A DNA stretch of 64,000 bases from a virus (Duplodnaviria > Heunggongvirae > Uroviricota > Caudoviricetes): the IMG/VR virus record IMGVR_UViG_2541047857_000009; one strand, written 5' to 3'. The position numbers were made by a program, and so were the translations under genes. Numbering within the stretch: position 1 is the stretch's first letter; each line of letters starts with the position of its first letter. The notes beneath the pieces are model-generated. The model saw only the letters and a list, made by a program, of their open reading frames with translations. It did no database searches and was not told the origin of the DNA. Positions 8,860 through 56,517 of the stretch are shown one piece after another.

Positions 8860-9186
8860 ATGTCCGAGAAAATCACAGAGCAATTGGTCTTTCGCCCTGC
8901 CAGTGAAAAACTGACAAAGGATCTGGATGGTGAGTGGGTGATTCTGCTCAATCCATGCGATGGCTGGCATATTGCCCATGTGGTGGCGCTGGAAGAGGAT
9001 GGCGAGGTCTACCATGTCGGAGCATATCAATTTGCAGGCGGCGAGTTCGAGCCGCACGAATTTTATGTTGCCTGGGCTTTGCTTCCAGACTCAATAAAAC
9101 TGTCTGATCGCTTTGAAGATCAGAGGATGAGTCAAGAAATTAGAGACGCTCGCTGGCGTGAATGGACAGCCAGCATCAATAAGTGA
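8860..9186 (+). CDS. Hypothetical protein, first late-region ORF
   Basis: ATG 8860 with GGAG SD; listed ORF 8800 start lies inside the terminator. Confidence 0.45.
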   Translation: MSEKITEQLVFRPASEKLTKDLDGEWVILLNPCDGWHIAHVVALEEDGEVYHVGAYQFAGGEFEPHEFYVAWALLPDSIKLSDRFEDQRMSQEIRDARWREWTASINK

Positions 9187-9201
9187 TTTCAAACCAAATT
9201 C

Positions 9202-9276
9202 GCCGGTCTAGTTCAGTGGCAGAACGGCAGCCTTGTAAGCTGCGCGTCAGAGGTTCGATTCCTTTGCCCGGCACCA
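9202..9276 (+). tRNA. tRNA, anticodon TGT (Thr-like), phage-encoded
   Basis: Hand-folded cloverleaf: D-stem GTTC/GAAC, anticodon arm GCAGC-CTTGTAA-GCTGC, T-loop TTCGATT, 3' ACCA; one acceptor mismatch. Confidence 0.55.
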
Positions 9277-9333
9277 GAACCCACTGCCTGGGACCCTTCG
9301 GCCATAGAGCCGGCATTGCCTTACCCTCACATT

Positions 9334-9357
9334 GCCAGCCTGTCGCTGGCTTTTTTA
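9334..9357 (+). terminator. Intrinsic terminator after tRNA
   Basis: GCCAGC-CTGTC-GCTGGC hairpin followed by TTTTTT. Confidence 0.6.
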
Positions 9358-9440
9358 TTTTCAGGCTCCGGGAACCATCATCGACACGCCTACTTGTTAA
9401 ATCGTCCCGAGGGCCTGAACCAACTACACACGGAATAAAT

Positions 9441-9842
9441 ATGTCTGAGACCTTCACTATCGTAGGCGTTGGTCTTACATCGTCATCAGTCGGTGTAACC
9501 TTTGCCACGCTGTTTCCGGAGGCGACTCCAGCAGTGATGCTCGGATCACTCGCCGGAACTGCGCTATACGTTCTGACCTCAGATCCCCATCAACTCTGGA
9601 AGCAGGCTATCTTTGCGCTGATATCGTTTATCAGTGGCGTGTTCTTCTCCGTACCCATGGCGAAAATCATGGCCGGAATCATCAACACGCCGTTAAGCCT
9701 GATGAAGCCACCAGCCAGCATTGAGGTATCGCCAGCTGTCGGTGCAATTGTCACTGCTTCCATTTCCGTGGCAGTCCTGCTGCGTATTCTCCGCAAATCC
9801 AAAAGCGGGAAGATGCCGGGGCTGGGGGAGGAAGATAAATGA
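9441..9842 (+). CDS. Holin-like membrane protein
   Basis: Three hydrophobic segments and charged C-terminus; first gene of lysis cassette. Confidence 0.6.
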   Translation: MSETFTIVGVGLTSSSVGVTFATLFPEATPAVMLGSLAGTALYVLTSDPHQLWKQAIFALISFISGVFFSVPMAKIMAGIINTPLSLMKPPASIEVSPAVGAIVTASISVAVLLRILRKSKSGKMPGLGEEDK

Positions 9843-10114
9843 CATGGCAGCTTCTTCTGATGGATGCAAACGCCATAGTTTGCCTGTTAATCATGGTCAG
9901 GCTGATGTTTTTCCGGAAAGAGGGAAAGCGTCATCGCCTGAGTGTCGCGGTGCTGGCCTACCTGGTCATACTTGCCGCCGGATTCAACGCCTTCAACATT
10001 CTGCTCGGCCACTACGTTCAGGTTAACCTTGGCGACCTGCTGCTGAACTCCGTCATATGCATGGCGGTGTGGCTGGCGCGTGGGAACCTGGCGAAGGTCG
10101 TTATAACGGAGTAG
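9839..10114 (+). CDS. Holin/antiholin-like small membrane protein
   Basis: 91 aa with two or three TM segments, directly upstream of endolysin. Confidence 0.6.
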   Translation: MTWQLLLMDANAIVCLLIMVRLMFFRKEGKRHRLSVAVLAYLVILAAGFNAFNILLGHYVQVNLGDLLLNSVICMAVWLARGNLAKVVITE

Positions 10115-10117
10115 TCC

Positions 10118-10558
10118 ATGCAAACCAGCGAAAAGGGCATTGCCCTAATCAAAGAATTCGAAGGCTGTAGACTCACTGCTTACCAGGACAGCGTGGGCGT
10201 ATGGACGATCGGCTATGGCTGGACTCAACCTGTGGATGGAAAACCAATCCGCGCCGGGATGACTATCAAGCAGGAAACAGCAGAACGTCTGCTGAAGACC
10301 GGGCTGGTCAGCTATGAAAACGACGTGTCCCGCCTGGTTAAAGTCGGCTTGACTCAGGGGCAATTCGACGCCCTGGTGTCGTTCACGTATAACCTCGGCG
10401 CTCGGTCATTGTCGACATCGACACTCCTGCGAAAACTCAATGCCGGTGATTACGCTGGTGCTGCTGATGAGTTCCCGCGCTGGAACAAAGCAGGTGGCAA
10501 AGTCCTGAACGGGCTAACCCGTCGGCGTGAGGCGGAGCGCGCTCTGTTTCTGTCGTGA
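10118..10558 (+). CDS. Endolysin, GH24 lysozyme (T4 lysozyme-like)
   Basis: KEFEGCRLTAYQDSVGVWTIGYG catalytic region typical of phage lysozyme. Confidence 0.9.
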   Translation: MQTSEKGIALIKEFEGCRLTAYQDSVGVWTIGYGWTQPVDGKPIRAGMTIKQETAERLLKTGLVSYENDVSRLVKVGLTQGQFDALVSFTYNLGARSLSTSTLLRKLNAGDYAGAADEFPRWNKAGGKVLNGLTRRREAERALFLS

Positions 10559-10941
10559 TTAGCGCACTGGTTAAGCGTTACTGGCTGCAACTGATTGTGG
10601 TGGCGGTAATCGGCGTGCTGGCGTTCTTCGTGAACCACTACCGCGACAACGCCATTACCTACAAAGACCAGCGCGACAAGGCGACGGTCAGGGCAGATAC
10701 ATCGGAGGCGATCACCAGCAACGTGATCACCACGATGAACCTCATCCGTGACATTTCACAGGCTACCCAGAATGCAAAGAACGAACTGGCCCATAAAGGC
10801 GAAACGCGCATTGTCTACATCAGGCAGGCGCTTGAAGGCGATCCGTGCGCTAACCAGCTTGTTCCTTCTGCCGCTGCTGACAGCCTGCGGGAATACGCAG
10901 ACAGTTTACGTTCCGGCCCCGGTGGTTCCGATAAGCGCTGA
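10555..10941 (+). CDS. Rz-like i-spanin
   Basis: N-terminal TM segment, coiled-coil periplasmic region, position after endolysin. Confidence 0.8.
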   Translation: MISALVKRYWLQLIVVAVIGVLAFFVNHYRDNAITYKDQRDKATVRADTSEAITSNVITTMNLIRDISQATQNAKNELAHKGETRIVYIRQALEGDPCANQLVPSAAADSLREYADSLRSGPGGSDKR

Positions 10942-11092: not shown

Positions 11093-11185
11093 ATTGAATT
11101 CGAGAAATGAAAGTAGTAAAAGTCAGTCATGCTGTGAGCAGACCAGCTGAAGAGAAATCACCAAGTATCAAAAACAAAATTCTGA

Positions 11186-11211
11186 GCCTCGGCAATCGCC
11201 GGGGCTTTTTT
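11186..11211 (+). terminator. Intrinsic terminator after lysis cassette
   Basis: GCCTCGG-CAATCG-CCGGGGC hairpin followed by TTTTTT. Confidence 0.65.
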
Positions 11212-11364
11212 GTATCCGCATTTCACCGCGCACCGCAGCGCATTCAACCCACGTCGAACCATACCCTTTGAAATGAGCCTTTGAGGAAGTCAGTTAGTGC
11301 TGGCGAGCCTCGACGGGCTGATTTCCTATGCGGCAAAGGTTCATCTCAAAGAAAGGTACACGCT

Positions 11365-11910
11365 ATGACATATCCAACTGTGATCGTGAATGGTGTCTCT
11401 GTCCGAGTGGACGAGAAGGGGCGCTATAGCCTGAATGATCTTCATGCCGCCGCTGTCCTGAAAGGTGAGGCTACTGAGTCACAAAAGCCGGGCAAGTTTA
11501 TTCGTAGTGCATCAGTAAAGCGTTTCGTTCAGGCGCTGGCAGGCAAAGGACAAAAATGTCCTTTGGAAGATAACCAGGCACTTAGAGTAATTCGCGGTGG
11601 TGACGAGCCCGGCGTATGGGCTGCAGAGCTACTCGCTATTAGATATGCCGCCTGGATTAAGCCGGAGTTTGAAATCCGCGTTTATGAAACCTTCCGCGAG
11701 GCTGTGCTCAACGGTCTTAGCAATATGAACCGACTCAACCGACTTGACCTGCTGATCGCCAATGAGACCAAAGAGGTCAGCGCATGTGCCCGGGCAATGA
11801 ATAAGTGGGGCGTCGGTGGTCGCAAGAAGCTTCTCAATTGCGCTCGTGAGCGGATCGTCAGCCAGATGGACCCTGACATGGTCACGCTTATGGAAGCGAA
11901 AGCAGGGTAG
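11365..11910 (+). CDS. KilA-N domain protein
   Basis: N-terminal KilA-N-like region (VSVRVDEKGRYSLNDLHAA); AAAGAAAGG SD; flanked by terminator. Confidence 0.7.
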   Translation: MTYPTVIVNGVSVRVDEKGRYSLNDLHAAAVLKGEATESQKPGKFIRSASVKRFVQALAGKGQKCPLEDNQALRVIRGGDEPGVWAAELLAIRYAAWIKPEFEIRVYETFREAVLNGLSNMNRLNRLDLLIANETKEVSACARAMNKWGVGGRKKLLNCARERIVSQMDPDMVTLMEAKAG

Positions 11911-12139: not shown

Positions 12140-12358
12140 ATGGCTGACATCTACCAAATCACGCTAACCACCCAAACAGGCGAAACCTTCACGGGCAAGA
12201 TGTCACGACGTCAGCCTGAGCTGGTTAACGGCTTTGTGCCGCTGGCGACCGAAACGGGGCAGTGGCTGTACTTCGCTCCTGCTGATGTAAAGCGTGTGGA
12301 GTTCACGCCAGTACCTGAAGAGCAGACCGAACAGCCAGAAGAACAAACAACGGAGTAA
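12140..12358 (+). CDS. Hypothetical protein with acidic C-terminal repeat
   Basis: 72-aa ORF ending PEEQTEQPEEQTTE. Confidence 0.45.
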   Translation: MADIYQITLTTQTGETFTGKMSRRQPELVNGFVPLATETGQWLYFAPADVKRVEFTPVPEEQTEQPEEQTTE

Positions 12359-12361
12359 CTC

Positions 12362-12994
12362 ATGGCAAGCGACGAAGAGAAAAGGCCACTGCCGAGTTCA
12401 GCATTCGTCGAAGAGTTCGCGCCATACACAAGACTGATTCCAGCTGATGGCGTGTGGCAGTGGGTACAAGCGAACATCATTGCCGAATCAGGCCACCTGC
12501 ATAACCCCGACCATATTCATCTGGCAGATGCTGATATCGGCTTCCTTTGGGCTGCTAATGCTTTCTCAAAGAAAGGGCGCACTGTTCTCGGGCAGGCCGA
12601 AGAAGTTATGTTTCGCGCTGGCGGGTGGCAAAAAGCCCGCATGGAGCAGCAGATGTATGAATGGTTCGGGCATAAGCCGGATTACATCATTACCCTTGCT
12701 GGCGACTTCTGCCTTAAGTGCTCTGATCTGGAATTCTGCGCCCTGATTGAACATGAGCTTTACCACATCGCCCAAGAGGTTGATGAGTTCAGCGCTCCCA
12801 AGTTCTACAGAGACAGTGGTTTGCCAAAACTTTGCATGCGTGGTCATGACGTCGAAGAGTTTATCGGCGTGGTTCGCAGATACGGCGCAAGCTCTGATGT
12901 GCAGGAATTGGTAGACGCTGCAAACAACCCCGCCGAAGTGGCGAAAATTAACATAGCCAGAGCATGCGGAACGTGCATGCTGAAGCTGGCTTAA
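12362..12994 (+). CDS. HExxH-motif protein, putative zinc metallopeptidase-like accessory protein
   Basis: LIEHELYHIAQE motif plus scattered Cys; no confident family assignment. Confidence 0.5.
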   Translation: MASDEEKRPLPSSAFVEEFAPYTRLIPADGVWQWVQANIIAESGHLHNPDHIHLADADIGFLWAANAFSKKGRTVLGQAEEVMFRAGGWQKARMEQQMYEWFGHKPDYIITLAGDFCLKCSDLEFCALIEHELYHIAQEVDEFSAPKFYRDSGLPKLCMRGHDVEEFIGVVRRYGASSDVQELVDAANNPAEVAKINIARACGTCMLKLA

Positions 12995-13024: not shown

Positions 13025-13480
13025 ATGGCTGCACTAAAACCAGAGGTGAAAGCCGCCATCGTTCAAATGCTTGCGTGCTATGACACCCTGTCGATTGTGG
13101 TCGACTCCGTCCAAAAAGATTACGGGATAAAAGTCACCCCGCAGCAAGTCGAATCGCACGACCCGACTAAGGCCAGCGGGAAAGGGCTGGCGCAGAAATG
13201 GGTAGAACTATTCAACGAAACCCGCAAGCGCTTCCAGACAGAAATCAGCGACATCCCGATCGCTAACAAAGCCTATCGTCTGCGCGCGCTCGACCGGATG
13301 ATGACCAACGCCGAGAAGATGCGAAACATGGCTCTTGCCGCATCGCTAATGGAGCAGGCGGCGAAAGAGGTTGGCGATGCGTACAGCAACAAACAGAAGG
13401 TCGAGCACACCAGTCCGGACGGAAGCATGACGCCGAAGCCGACCATTATCCAGTTACTACCCGTTGAGCCTAAAGCATGA
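13025..13480 (+). CDS. Terminase small subunit
   Basis: 151 aa, immediately upstream of and overlapping large terminase. Confidence 0.7.
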   Translation: MAALKPEVKAAIVQMLACYDTLSIVVDSVQKDYGIKVTPQQVESHDPTKASGKGLAQKWVELFNETRKRFQTEISDIPIANKAYRLRALDRMMTNAEKMRNMALAASLMEQAAKEVGDAYSNKQKVEHTSPDGSMTPKPTIIQLLPVEPKA

Positions 13481-14724
13481 GTGAAGCCGTTCAACTGCCG
13501 ATCCCAGCGAAGCTTGCACCGCTGTTCACTGCTGTGAATAAGCGCTACCGGTGCTCGCACGGAGGACGTGGTAGCGCCAAGACGAGAACATTCGCCTTGA
13601 TGACTGCCGTAAAGGCGTATCAGGCGATGATGAACGGTGAAAGCGGTGTGGTGCTCTGCGCTCGCGAATTTATGAACTCGCTGGAAGAGTCGAGTATGCA
13701 GGAGGTGAAACAGGCGATCCTGTCTGTTCCGTGGCTGGCTTCCAACTTTGATATCGGCGAGAAGTACATCCGCACCATCGACAAGAGCGTTAACTACGTG
13801 TTCTGCGGTCTGCGGCATAACCTCGACAGCATCAAGTCGAAAGCGCGCATCCTGCTGTGCTGGGTTGATGAAGCGGAATCAGTCAGCGAAATTGCCTGGC
13901 AGAAGCTGAGCCCGACCGTTCGTGAAGAGGGGTCAGAGATTTGGGTGACGTGGAACCCGGAGCGAGACGGTAGCGCCACGGATAAGCGTTTCCGCAAAGA
14001 GGCAGGCGACGACTGCATCACCGTTGAAATGAACTATACGGATAACCCGTGGTTCCCTGATGTGCTGGAAGGCGAGCGACAGAACGATCAGCGCCGCCTC
14101 GACCCGGCAACATACGCATGGGTGTGGGAAGGGGCTTATCTCGAAAACTCCGATAAGCAGGTACTGGCCGGGAAATACCGGATTGCTGAGTTCTCGGACC
14201 AACTATGGAAAGAGGCCGAACGTCTGTTCTTCGGTGCTGACTTCGGTTTCGCCAAAGACCCTAACACGTTGGTGCGTTCGTTCATCCTGCATAACCGGCT
14301 GTACATCGAATACGAGGCATACGGTCAGCAAACTGAGCTCGACCACATGCCAAAGCTGTACGACACGATTCCAGGTGCGCGTGACTGGCCCATTAAAGCC
14401 GACTCCGCTCGACCCGAGACGATCAGCTATCTAAAGCGGCAGGGCTTCAACATCTCAGCCGCTGAGAAATGGCAAGGAAGCGTTGAGGACGGGATCGCAC
14501 ACCTTCGCGGATTCGACGAAATCATTATCCATCCGCGCTGCAAGAATGTGGCGCGAGAGGCCCGCATGTGGTCGTACAAAACAGACCGCATTACTGGCGA
14601 GGTGCTGCCGAAACTGGCCGACGGCTATGAACACTGCTGGGACGGTATCCGCTACAGCCTAGACGGGCACATTAAGCGTAAAGGCCAGATGGCCGGGATG
14701 ATGATCCCAAAACGGCTGCGATAA
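13477..14724 (+). CDS. Terminase large subunit (PBSX/Terminase_3-like)
   Basis: Walker A-like GGRGSAKT near N-terminus, C-terminal nuclease region, 415 aa. Confidence 0.85.
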   Translation: MSEAVQLPIPAKLAPLFTAVNKRYRCSHGGRGSAKTRTFALMTAVKAYQAMMNGESGVVLCAREFMNSLEESSMQEVKQAILSVPWLASNFDIGEKYIRTIDKSVNYVFCGLRHNLDSIKSKARILLCWVDEAESVSEIAWQKLSPTVREEGSEIWVTWNPERDGSATDKRFRKEAGDDCITVEMNYTDNPWFPDVLEGERQNDQRRLDPATYAWVWEGAYLENSDKQVLAGKYRIAEFSDQLWKEAERLFFGADFGFAKDPNTLVRSFILHNRLYIEYEAYGQQTELDHMPKLYDTIPGARDWPIKADSARPETISYLKRQGFNISAAEKWQGSVEDGIAHLRGFDEIIIHPRCKNVAREARMWSYKTDRITGEVLPKLADGYEHCWDGIRYSLDGHIKRKGQMAGMMIPKRLR

Positions 14725-14783
14725 TTTGTACGAATACCAAGCGAAGTCATAATTAAACTCCCGCCATATGATTCGGAGGTTTT

Positions 14784-15017
14784 ATGCATAGCTTTGAGCA
14801 CTTGGTTGCAGAAATAAGAGAAGAGTTAAGGCTTAGAGGGCTTGAGCATTCATCGCTAATTTTTACTAAGCTTGCTCAGCAATACGCCCCTTACTATCAA
14901 TCATTCGAACCTGAAAGAAAAGAGGCGTTACTGCTAAAGCTTAAGGCGCTTGAGAGAAGCGTGGGGCTACAGAAACCATTTGATTGGGAATCAGCCCTCT
15001 CAACGAAAAAAGAATAG
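14784..15017 (+). CDS. Hypothetical small protein
   Basis: 77-aa ORF between terminase and portal. Confidence 0.4.
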   Translation: MHSFEHLVAEIREELRLRGLEHSSLIFTKLAQQYAPYYQSFEPERKEALLLKLKALERSVGLQKPFDWESALSTKKE

Positions 15018-15067
15018 GTCGCTCAGGCGGCCTTTTTTATTGCCATAAATCCACCACCGGACAATCC

Positions 15068-16417
15068 ATGAATGACAAATTAACTCTCGCCGTCAACCAT
15101 GCGTTGAACGATGCGCGGATGGCTCGCGCCCGTATGGGGCTGATGGCGCCTACAATGGGGCTGGACAACAAGCGCCACTCTGCATGGTGCGAGTATGGAT
15201 TCCCTGAGCAGGTAACCTACGAAAACCTTTATGCCCTGTACCGACGCGGTGGTATTGCCCACGGCGCAGTAGAGAAACTGGTGGGCAAGTGCTGGCAGAC
15301 TAACCCGGAAATCATCGAGGGTGATCAGGCAGACAAAAAGCGCAAAGAAACCGCCTGGGAGAAAAAGGCCAAACAGGTATTCACCAACCGATTCTGGCGC
15401 TCATTCTCTGAGGCCGATCGCCGTCGTCTGGTGGGCCGTTATGCTGGCATCCTTCTGCACGTCCGCGATGAAAAAGACTGGAACCTTCCGGTAACCAAAG
15501 GGCGAGGTCTTCAGAAAATATCGGTGGCGTGGGCAGGATCGCTTACGGTGAGCGAGTGGGACACTGGCCTGAACTCGAAGACGTACGGCCAGCCTCAGAT
15601 GTGGCAGTACGCCGAACGCTTGCCGAATGGTTCAAGTCGCCGCGTCAATATCCACCCCGATCGCGTTTTCATCCTTGGTGATTACTCAGACGATGCTATT
15701 GGCTTCCTTGAGCCAGCTTATAACGCCTTTGTAAGCCTGGAGAAGGTAGAGGGTGGATCCGGCGAGTCATTCCTGAAGAACGCCGCGCGCCAGCTTAATG
15801 TCAACTTTGAGAAGGAAATCGACTTCAACAATCTTGCGTCACTTTATGGCGTGAGCATTGACGAGTTGCAGGATAAGTTTAACGAAGTTGCCGGGGAAAT
15901 GAACCGTGGCAACGATGTTTTGATGACAACCCAAGGGGCCACGGTCACACCGCTGGTGACTGCTGTAGCTGATCCTTCAGCGACCTATAACGTCAACCTG
16001 CAAACGGCTGCCGCCGGTGTTGATATCCCGACGCGCATTCTGGTTGGTAATCAGCAGGCCGAGCGCTCCAGCACCGAAGACCAGAAATACTTTAATGCTC
16101 GTTGTCAGTCGCGACGCGTAGACCTCTCTTTCGAAATAGAGGACTTCTGCGACAAGCTTATCGATCTACAAATCGTAGACTCAGTCAGTCAGAAGGCTGT
16201 TATCTGGGATGACCTTAACGAACAGACCGGTACTGAGAAGCTCACTAACGCCAAGACCATGGGCGAAATTAACCAGACCATGCAGGGCAGCGGCGAAGAG
16301 CCAGCGTTCAGCCGTGAAGAGATTCGTACAGCTGCGGGTTATGACAATGACGACGAAGAGCCGTTAGGAGAAGAGGATGGCGACGAACAAGACGAAGCCA
16401 CCAATTCTACCGCGTAA
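15068..16417 (+). CDS. Portal protein
   Basis: About 450 aa following terminase, acidic C-terminal tail; start taken at ATG 15068. Confidence 0.75.
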   Translation: MNDKLTLAVNHALNDARMARARMGLMAPTMGLDNKRHSAWCEYGFPEQVTYENLYALYRRGGIAHGAVEKLVGKCWQTNPEIIEGDQADKKRKETAWEKKAKQVFTNRFWRSFSEADRRRLVGRYAGILLHVRDEKDWNLPVTKGRGLQKISVAWAGSLTVSEWDTGLNSKTYGQPQMWQYAERLPNGSSRRVNIHPDRVFILGDYSDDAIGFLEPAYNAFVSLEKVEGGSGESFLKNAARQLNVNFEKEIDFNNLASLYGVSIDELQDKFNEVAGEMNRGNDVLMTTQGATVTPLVTAVADPSATYNVNLQTAAAGVDIPTRILVGNQQAERSSTEDQKYFNARCQSRRVDLSFEIEDFCDKLIDLQIVDSVSQKAVIWDDLNEQTGTEKLTNAKTMGEINQTMQGSGEEPAFSREEIRTAAGYDNDDEEPLGEEDGDEQDEATNSTA

Positions 16418-17306: not shown

Positions 17307-18629
17307 ATGAAATTCCAGGTAAACCACGAAGCACAGCGTCCAATCCAGGCACCGAAACATGGTGAGCATATTCAGGTCAACATCACCACAAAGGTGAACA
17401 GCCAGTCTATCCGGCGCGAAACATACAACGGGCGTGAGCACCTGGTGCTGCCGAGCTACACACTTCCAGCTAACGTCGTCATGAATGGCGGCTTGTACAC
17501 GCAAGAGCAAATCGACGCCCACTATAAGGGGCTGGAAGGTACCCTGGCGCCGCTGGGTCACCCTCAGGTTAACGGTCAGTTCGTGTCTGCTTTCTCTCCT
17601 GAGGGGATTAACGCAGGCCATATCGGCGCGTGGAACCGCAACGTTAAGAAGTCCGGTAATCGTATCTACCTCGAAAAGTGGGTTGATGTGGCCCGTGCCA
17701 GCGAGTCGGAAGGTGGCAGGGAACTGCTTGAGCGTGTCGCTGCCATTGAGCGCGGTGAAAACGTTCCGCCGATTCACACCAGCGTCGCTGCTTTCCTCGA
17801 CCAGCTTGAACCAAACGAACAGCAACGGGCCACTGGCGCTGAGTGGGTTGCGAAGATTTACAGCATGGATCACGACGCGATCCTGCTGCACGAAGTCGGA
17901 GCCGCCACCCCTGAGCAGGGCGTTGGCCTGATGGTAAACGCCGATCTGGCGCAGCCGCTTAAAGCGAACTCCGGCGCGCTGGTGGGTGAATCCTACCGGG
18001 AGCGCGAACAGCGTCTTGATCGCGCAGCCAAAGCGAAGTTTGCGGCGGGCGCGGATGAATATGCCTGGGTTGCTGACTTCACTGATTCGCAGGTAGTTAT
18101 CGTGCGAAATGGCGGCGATGCGCAGGTTTACGGCTATTCCGCTGATGGCGGGAAGATCGCTATCGACGATACCGGCACCGCAGTAGCGCGCCAGGAGTCG
18201 TGGGTGGCAGTCGTCGCTAACAAATTCAAAGCTCTATTCACACCGCAGGAACAGCCTGCACCAAACCACAAAACGGAGGGCGACATGCCTTTAACCAAAG
18301 AAGAACTGGAACAAATCGGCAGCATGATCGGCCAGGCTGTTGCGACCAATACTGAAGCGGCTATTAAGCCTCTCGCGGAAAAGGTTGATGCGCTGCAGGC
18401 CAATCAGAAGCAACTCGCGGAAACCCTGACCGCGAACTCCCGTGCCGAAGAGAAAGCAAAGCGCGAAGCGGTTGCGAAGGCCCATGGCGATATCGTCGCG
18501 AACGCTCTGTCAGGCGAAGCTCTGGACGCGATGTTCAAGTCGCTGGGCGAAGCTGCGCCGCTGGGCACCAACAATGCTCAGCAGCACAAAGAAACCGGCG
18601 CACCAGCCGCAGACGAACACTTCAAGTAA
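17307..18629 (+). CDS. Scaffold/prohead-associated protein (DUF2213-like)
   Basis: 440 aa with Ala/Glu-rich coiled-coil C-terminus, between head morphogenesis and capsid genes. Confidence 0.55.
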   Translation: MKFQVNHEAQRPIQAPKHGEHIQVNITTKVNSQSIRRETYNGREHLVLPSYTLPANVVMNGGLYTQEQIDAHYKGLEGTLAPLGHPQVNGQFVSAFSPEGINAGHIGAWNRNVKKSGNRIYLEKWVDVARASESEGGRELLERVAAIERGENVPPIHTSVAAFLDQLEPNEQQRATGAEWVAKIYSMDHDAILLHEVGAATPEQGVGLMVNADLAQPLKANSGALVGESYREREQRLDRAAKAKFAAGADEYAWVADFTDSQVVIVRNGGDAQVYGYSADGGKIAIDDTGTAVARQESWVAVVANKFKALFTPQEQPAPNHKTEGDMPLTKEELEQIGSMIGQAVATNTEAAIKPLAEKVDALQANQKQLAETLTANSRAEEKAKREAVAKAHGDIVANALSGEALDAMFKSLGEAAPLGTNNAQQHKETGAPAADEHFK

Positions 18630-56257: not shown

Positions 56258-56333
56258 GGCCCTTTAGCTCAGTGGTGAGAGCGAGCGACTCATAATCGCC
56301 AGGTCGCTGGTTCAAATCCAGCAAGGGCCACCA
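56258..56333 (+). tRNA. tRNA with CAT anticodon (ileX/ileZ-like; Ile2 or Met)
   Basis: GGCCCTTTAGCTCAGTGG...CTCATAA...TTCAAATCC...GGGCCACCA; perfect acceptor stem. Confidence 0.85.
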
Positions 56334-56340
56334 TCACATA

Positions 56341-56417
56341 CCGCCATTAGCTCATCAGGAAAGAGCGCCAGCCTTCGAAGCTGGTTGCGCGGAGTTCGGG
56401 TCCCCGAAGGCGGTCCA
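56341..56417 (+). tRNA. tRNA-Arg-like (anticodon TCG), degenerate stems
   Basis: Clear anticodon arm CCAGC-CTTCGAA-GCTGG, D-stem GCTC/GAGC, T-loop TTCGGGT, 3' TCCA; mismatches in acceptor and T stems. Confidence 0.45.
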
Positions 56418-56440
56418 TTATCTGTATCCTGCGTTGTTAG

Positions 56441-56517
56441 CTCAGCCGGACAGAGCAATTGCCTTCTAAGCAATCGGTCACTGGTTCGAATCCAGTACAA
56501 CGCGCCACACTTATTTT
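56441..56517 (+). tRNA. tRNA-Arg (anticodon TCT)
   Basis: Perfect cloverleaf: acceptor GCGTTGT/ACAACGC, anticodon loop CTTCTAA, T-loop TTCGAAT, 3' GCCA. Confidence 0.85.

Follow-up and report, generated by a model that had tools for sequence, protein, structure and literature searches.

The PF18894 locus between lysis and packaging genes

The 64,000-nucleotide stretch of viral DNA analysed here (the window; IMG/VR record IMGVR_UViG_2541047857_000009, Caudoviricetes) carries on the + strand, at positions 12362..12994, a gene for a 210-amino-acid protein of the Pfam family PF18894, 'putative phage metallopeptidase', which is referred to as MP in the following. The gene starts with ATG, preceded about 8 nt upstream by GGAG, and ends with TAA. 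Directly downstream on the same strand lies a gene for a 151-amino-acid DUF2280 protein (13025..13480; Pfam DUF2280, E=3e-46), the probable small terminase (TerS), whose stop overlaps the start of the large terminase gene (TerL) at 13477. MP and DUF2280 form a conserved two-gene unit that heads the packaging operon.

A reading of this DNA made from the sequence alone had singled out the open reading frame (ORF) for its HExxH motif and had placed it in the interval between lysis and terminase genes. Both points hold, as the ORF is contained in the mechanical ORF list with HELYH at nt 12752-12766, while Rz ends at 10941 and TerL starts at 13477. The lysis cassette comprises the holin (9839-10114), lysozyme (10118-10558) and Rz (10555-10941) genes, and it is followed by a strong terminator-like hairpin on the + strand (11184..11207; a 10-bp stem with 7 GC pairs and a T-run) that precedes both the KilA-N gene and the MP unit. 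Apart from MP and DUF2280, the interval carries this KilA-N gene (11281-11910; PHROG 129), a homologue of which is annotated 'antirepressor' in phage ENT47670, and a 72-amino-acid ORF (12140..12358, + strand; phrog_6581) with an acidic PEEQTEQPEEQTTE tail that ends only 3 nt before the MP start. Beyond the unit follow TerL (13477..14724, + strand; Terminase_3 and Terminase_3C) and the portal protein gene (14984..16417, + strand; Pfam Phage_portal_3, PHROG 146). A 34.9 kb IMG/VR viral contig (IMGVR_UViG_3300045988_038386) encodes a 100%-identical MP and likewise has KilA-N, lysozyme, Rz, DUF2280, TerL and portal genes as neighbours; it and prophage 1 of the window are essentially one phage.

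Family membership, conserved residues and predicted fold

MP matches PF18894 over residues 32-188 with 145.3 bits (cut-off 23.7; E=1.5e-42); the score lies above the gathering threshold, the profile is covered in full (1-134 of 134) and the HExxH motif is conserved. The sequence-only reading had assigned no family; the protein belongs to a described, though unstudied, family along the full length of its profile. MP also matches PHROG 513 (E=8e-97), labelled 'transposase' in PHROGs, and the labels of its homologues in GenBank vary between transposase, metallopeptidase, toxin and hypothetical. A search against the NCBIfam profiles gave no match, and a search against PADLOC gave only a spurious 13-bit match. 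In the database, the closest protein is one of Enterobacter hormaechei (98% identical). The family as a whole amounts to 4,741 clusters at 90% identity in a word-indexed search and to 708 clusters at 50% identity in an exhaustive one, and tblastn located MP in 144 phage records, which for the most part come from temperate phages that infect Acinetobacter, Pseudomonas, Klebsiella, Vibrio and Burkholderia. With 124 divergent representatives, which are 32-54% identical to the query and all match PF18894, MP shares the length class (~200-220 amino acids), an invariant HExxH...H and a C-terminal CxxC. No feature sets it apart from typical members, and hence the window protein is an ordinary copy of the family.

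The same 124 representatives served for all conservation counts. H131, E132, H135, H162 and C202 are invariant (124/124), and H51 (122/124), H53 (119/124), D163 (116/124), E165 (119/124) and C205 (112/124) nearly so. Given the 145-bit profile match and the invariance of H131, E132 and H135, the HExxH of MP is no chance occurrence. The motif (HELYH, 12752..12766, + strand) falls within LIEHELYHIAQE, residues 128-139, and is assigned to a predicted helix at 122-134. By comparison with zincins of the HExxH...H type, for example Spartan or the minigluzincins, H131, H135 and H162 are presumably the zinc ligands and E132 the general base, with H162 contributed by a GHDVEE motif (H162-D163-V-E165; 12845..12856, + strand). 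A further conserved set, H51-x-H53 (12512..12520, + strand) and C202-G-T-C205 near the C-terminus (12965..12976, + strand), is jointly intact in 107 of the representatives and may bind a second, structural metal, of which H51-x-H53 would be one half; the CxxC lies in a part of the model with low pLDDT (52-72). The pairing must be taken with caution, since a 173-amino-acid Bordetella homologue retains the HxH without the CxxC. Concerning the several cysteines that had also been pointed out from the sequence, six are indeed present (C117, C120, C126, C158, C202 and C205), but only C202, C205 and C126 (98/124) are conserved, while C117 and C120 occur in about 20% of the relatives.

A fold model of MP was generated with AF2 from 133 sequences, an earlier run with 38 sequences from two clades having been discarded (pLDDT 57). 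In the predicted model the active-site helix carries the HExxH and packs against a mixed beta-sheet, and the model resembles solved zincins, its structural neighbours (scores in brackets) being the SprT domain of Spartan (6.6), selecase (6.6), proabylysin (6.3), BepA (6.0), YbeY (5.7), the predicted zincin-like metalloprotease 3e11 (5.6) and BlaR1 and Wss1 (both 5.5), with alignments that span ~90 residues at 8-15% identity. The HExxH therefore lies in a minimal zincin core to which family-specific N- and C-terminal elements are added, in agreement with the zincin-like metallopeptidase proposed by the sequence-only reading. A BFVD fold search returned only distant members of MP's own family. 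These observations are best explained if MP is a soluble cytoplasmic zinc metallopeptidase with a minimal zincin core, which would then act as a protease.

The minigluzincins (projannalysin 4jix, proabylysin 4jiu, selecase 4qhf) and the catalytic cores of M48/M56 (BepA, HtpX, BlaR1) share only 11-14% identity with MP, and no sequence-profile match was found. MP is twice as long and has an N-terminal region peculiar to its family (RPxPP, HxH) as well as the C-terminal CxxC, and the minigluzincins are archaeal, stand-alone and without any phage or terminase context. In comparison with the SprT/Spartan/Wss1 group, which acts in DNA-protein crosslink repair, the window MP has no Pfam SprT-like match at E<=1 and no recognised DNA-binding domain of its own; it matches neither the SprT-like (PF10263) nor the WLM profile, and weak SprT-like matches are confined to 5 of the 124 relatives (best E=0.012). 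In the ImmA/IrrE (COG2856) and CapP pairs, which occur in mobile elements, a zincin gene likewise neighbours a small gene whose product probably binds DNA; however, MP has no Pfam match to ImmA/IrrE (Peptidase_M78), and its neighbours are lysis and packaging genes rather than an Xre-type repressor in an immunity region.

An N-terminal extension of 40-117 amino acids, which is missing from the window protein, is present in 34 of the representatives, and about 20 of these show weak helix-turn-helix (HTH) matches (HTH_Tnp_1, Fis-type HTH_8, MerR and similar). Most extensions share the pattern Y-S/T-E...AL...GD...AAK...VP...L..W, and loci with an apparently extended MP ORF also carry DUF2280 downstream. 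Homology of the extension to the N-terminus of DUF2280 was considered and rejected (hhalign probability 0.6%). The extensions probably account for the 'transposase' label of the family: HTH_Tnp_1 matches weakly in only 6 of the 124 relatives, always within the extension, and the window protein, in which neither a transposase domain nor a transposase HTH was recognised, gives the label no support.

Linkage of MP to DUF2280, the probable small terminase

For the comparison of gene neighbourhoods, 160 close loci were fetched at an identity of at least 64% to the window MP and 80 divergent loci at ~40%, taken as the best 80 per scan and thus not as a random sample. Since the retrieval patterns were derived from MP alone, the presence of DUF2280 in these loci is not circular. 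Among the 166 close loci considered, DUF2280 lies directly downstream of MP on the same strand in 164, usually after a gap of 20-40 nt, and in one of the two remaining loci the DUF2280 gene is frameshifted (165/166 if counted). The arrangement is found in 77 of the 80 divergent loci as well, which brings the total to 241/246 (~98%). It is also present in five distant phages, Cronobacter ENT47670, Pseudomonas JBD44 (gp16), Acinetobacter Aclw_8, Vibrio Athena1 and Rhizobium RHph_N28_2, where the MP homologue is located directly upstream of DUF2280, followed by TerL. Counted by genus, the numbers of phage records with MP and with DUF2280 agree for Acinetobacter (62/62), Pseudomonas (44/44), Vibrio (8/8) and Burkholderia (7/7). 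In the three divergent exceptions a small ORF without relation to DUF2280 takes its place between MP and the TerL and portal genes. The small ORFs of L195 and L204 were examined as possible divergent DUF2280 proteins and rejected, as only a tail-like segment matches weakly; in L195, which has a Terminase_3-type TerL, the small ORF ends in a tail that weakly resembles that of the window DUF2280.

The surroundings of the pair are mosaic. Across the 166 close loci, the window's TerL type is present in 43, its portal in 83, the 72-amino-acid ORF in 44 and KilA-N in 11. The 72-amino-acid ORF was accordingly rejected as part of the conserved unit, and it is KilA-N, restricted to so few related loci, rather than MP that behaves like the variable cargo of the interval. 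The TerL proteins downstream of the pair fall into four clusters without BLAST links (126, 62, 31 and 11 loci) that belong to different Pfam terminase families, and the mechanically called ORFs upstream fall into ~170 clusters, a figure that spurious ORFs have probably inflated. The core of DUF2280 and MP diverge in parallel (r=0.75).

The linkage also has limits. DUF2280 (36% identity) occurs without the metallopeptidase in 181 phage records of Salinibacter ruber. In one of them (Salinibacter phage 4_20, 3432-4480) the position of MP is taken by a gene for a 172-amino-acid multi-pass membrane protein; a cryptic MP upstream of DUF2280 in these phages was rejected, the gene there encoding an unrelated membrane protein. 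Conversely, a homologue of MP in Bordetella phage PHB04 (31% identical) is situated among small hypothetical genes, ~2.8 kb from a GpA-type terminase. Furthermore, 27 of the divergent loci (L168-L247) have an MP-DUF2280 gap of 240-700 nt occupied by diverse ORFs that show no relation to one another and are mostly reverse-strand, which means that the junction tolerates insertions. Zinc-ribbon-like and membrane proteins are among the products of the inserted ORFs, and the widened junction resembles a hot spot for the insertion of morons immediately before the probable small-terminase gene.

Pfam and PHROGs both list DUF2280 under unknown function. Its assignment as the probable TerS is based on the overlap with TerL, on its being the sole candidate in the interval, on its tails and on existing annotation. 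No other TerS candidate between the lysis genes and TerL was found in the ORF list or by Pfam and PHROG searches, and a few GenBank records name the protein small terminase. In the loci compared (L001-L247 and the window), DUF2280 consists of a highly conserved core of ~120 amino acids and a C-terminal tail that comes in a few discrete types, for example ...TIIQLLPVEPKA, ...EMLEDDDC and ...VASVMDEIGDEDL. The tails track the TerL cluster, with a tail identity of 0.32 within and 0.23 between TerL types at equal core identity (0.58), which fits the expectation for a small terminase whose TerL-docking tail can be swapped. Among solved structures DUF2280 has no relative, and its Pfam matches to winged-helix families are all below threshold.

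The sequence-only reading had described MP as an accessory protein encoded in an interval that often hosts morons. MP is not a moron in the sense of independently acquired cargo. Besides its constant position in the vast majority of loci, the gene has a GC content of 0.50-0.54, compared with 0.50-0.57 in its neighbours, and no promoter-like (sigma-70-like sites were scanned) or terminator-like site was found on the + strand between the 72-amino-acid ORF and TerL, the only strong terminator-like hairpin of the region being the one after the lysis genes. MP is under purifying selection, with a dN/dS of ~0.12 compared with 0.16 for DUF2280 (229 usable pairs). This layout makes late co-transcription of MP with the lysis and packaging genes the most likely arrangement.

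Several other features of the window lie outside the unit. A tRNA-Thr gene (TGT; 9202-9276) is located just upstream of the holin/lysis cassette; it is overlapped by a mechanical ORF (9183-9842), the 5' end of which is probably spurious. Its placement is similar to that in lambdoid phages with tRNAs, which carry them downstream of the late regulator. Three clustered tRNA genes (Met-CAT, Arg-TCG, Arg-TCT; 56258-56507) far from MP may be part of a second prophage or indicate a site of integration. Between TerL and portal, the GC content dips to 0.435 (14700-15100) around a 77-amino-acid ORF (14784-15017), which may reflect a small inserted gene or a regulatory region. Further downstream, a gene for a 440-amino-acid PHROG 760 protein (17307-18629) is found between a Mu-F-like head morphogenesis gene and the decoration and major capsid genes, the usual place of a scaffold or prohead protease.

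A possible role at packaging initiation and its alternatives

Searches of the literature revealed no functional study of PF18894, DUF2280 or JBD44 gp16 and no description of a family-wide coupling of PF18894 to the small-terminase position. The MP family is listed as an accessory gene of unknown role (PMC12860723), and DUF2280 is listed as unknown (PMC7760358).

We tentatively propose, at somewhat less than even confidence, that MP acts as a protease at or near the initiation of packaging; for any one substrate our confidence is much lower. As an active cytoplasmic zinc protease that would be expressed late and attached to the packaging module, MP could reach the DNA or the terminase complex via the small terminase or, in about a quarter of the family clusters, via a helix-turn-helix fused to MP itself. 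The target would be proteinaceous: MP might process or turn over the small terminase, or it might act on proteins bound to the DNA to be packaged, following the same logic as Spartan and Wss1. In its most specific form, the proposal would make PF18894 an unrecognised third component in a widespread class of packaging modules of phages, namely a zinc protease that is tethered either to DNA or to the small terminase and that processes or turns over DUF2280 or strips proteins from the DNA while it is being packaged; put this narrowly, it is speculative and on balance unlikely. We know of no model phage in which a proteolytic step of that kind takes part in packaging initiation.

An anti-defence function deserves the most serious consideration among the alternatives, even though we regard it as rather unlikely. 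MP would then be, as the sequence-only reading had considered possible, an accessory zincin, expressed late, whose substrate is a host factor such as an immune sensor for terminase or portal proteins, and the junction at which it resides would simply be a stable module boundary. Known counter-defence genes are typically patchy among related phages, whereas MP holds its position in ~98% of the 246 loci, which span three classes of proteobacteria, although TerL comes in four types and the genes upstream vary. Its dN/dS of 0.12 is as low as that of DUF2280, its GC content is normal, and it has neither a promoter or terminator of its own nor a meaningful PADLOC match, all of which is less in keeping with such cargo. 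A different explanation takes up the resemblance to ImmA/ImmR, IrrE/DdrO and CapP/CapH, in which case DUF2280 would be an HTH regulator, not TerS, that is cleaved by MP to switch late or packaging functions. We consider this improbable, because MP lacks a Peptidase_M78/ImmA match and has the minigluzincins, Spartan and M48 proteins rather than IrrE/ImmA as its best structural neighbours, because DUF2280 overlaps the TerL start, has a tail that co-varies with TerL type and is the only TerS candidate of the window, and because the pair heads a structural operon and not an immunity region.

MP could also be, instead of a peptidase, a zincin-fold metal hydrolase of nucleic acid after the manner of YbeY that assists terminase cutting at pac or cos, comparable to the HNH endonucleases that occur beside terminase genes, although we give this possibility little credence. 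Least probable of all is a role as the head-maturation (prohead) protease of the phage. In its favour, the head module, which includes the PHROG 760 protein without an assigned function, yielded no recognisable canonical prohead protease. However, only 83 of the 166 close loci share the portal family and 43 this TerL, yet MP is present in all of them, and a head-maturation role is disfavoured since MP is tied to no head or portal type. The prohead proteases known to us, moreover, are of the serine or herpesvirus type, with genes located between those for portal and capsid, and are not zincins encoded ahead of TerS.

The result that merits experimental follow-up is the family-level pattern rather than the single gene copy in this window. 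A strictly conserved and strongly constrained putative zinc protease fronts the probable small-terminase gene in hundreds of temperate phages, whichever TerL follows, and the pattern extends over phages of Acinetobacter, Pseudomonas, Klebsiella, Enterobacter, Vibrio, Burkholderia and rhizobia. The labels 'transposase' (PHROGs, GenBank) for PF18894 and 'hypothetical' for DUF2280 look wrong or uninformative and could be corrected. If packaging does involve MP, a process regarded as well understood would gain a new enzymatic step; if MP is instead a counter-defence factor, it would be an unusually fixed one.
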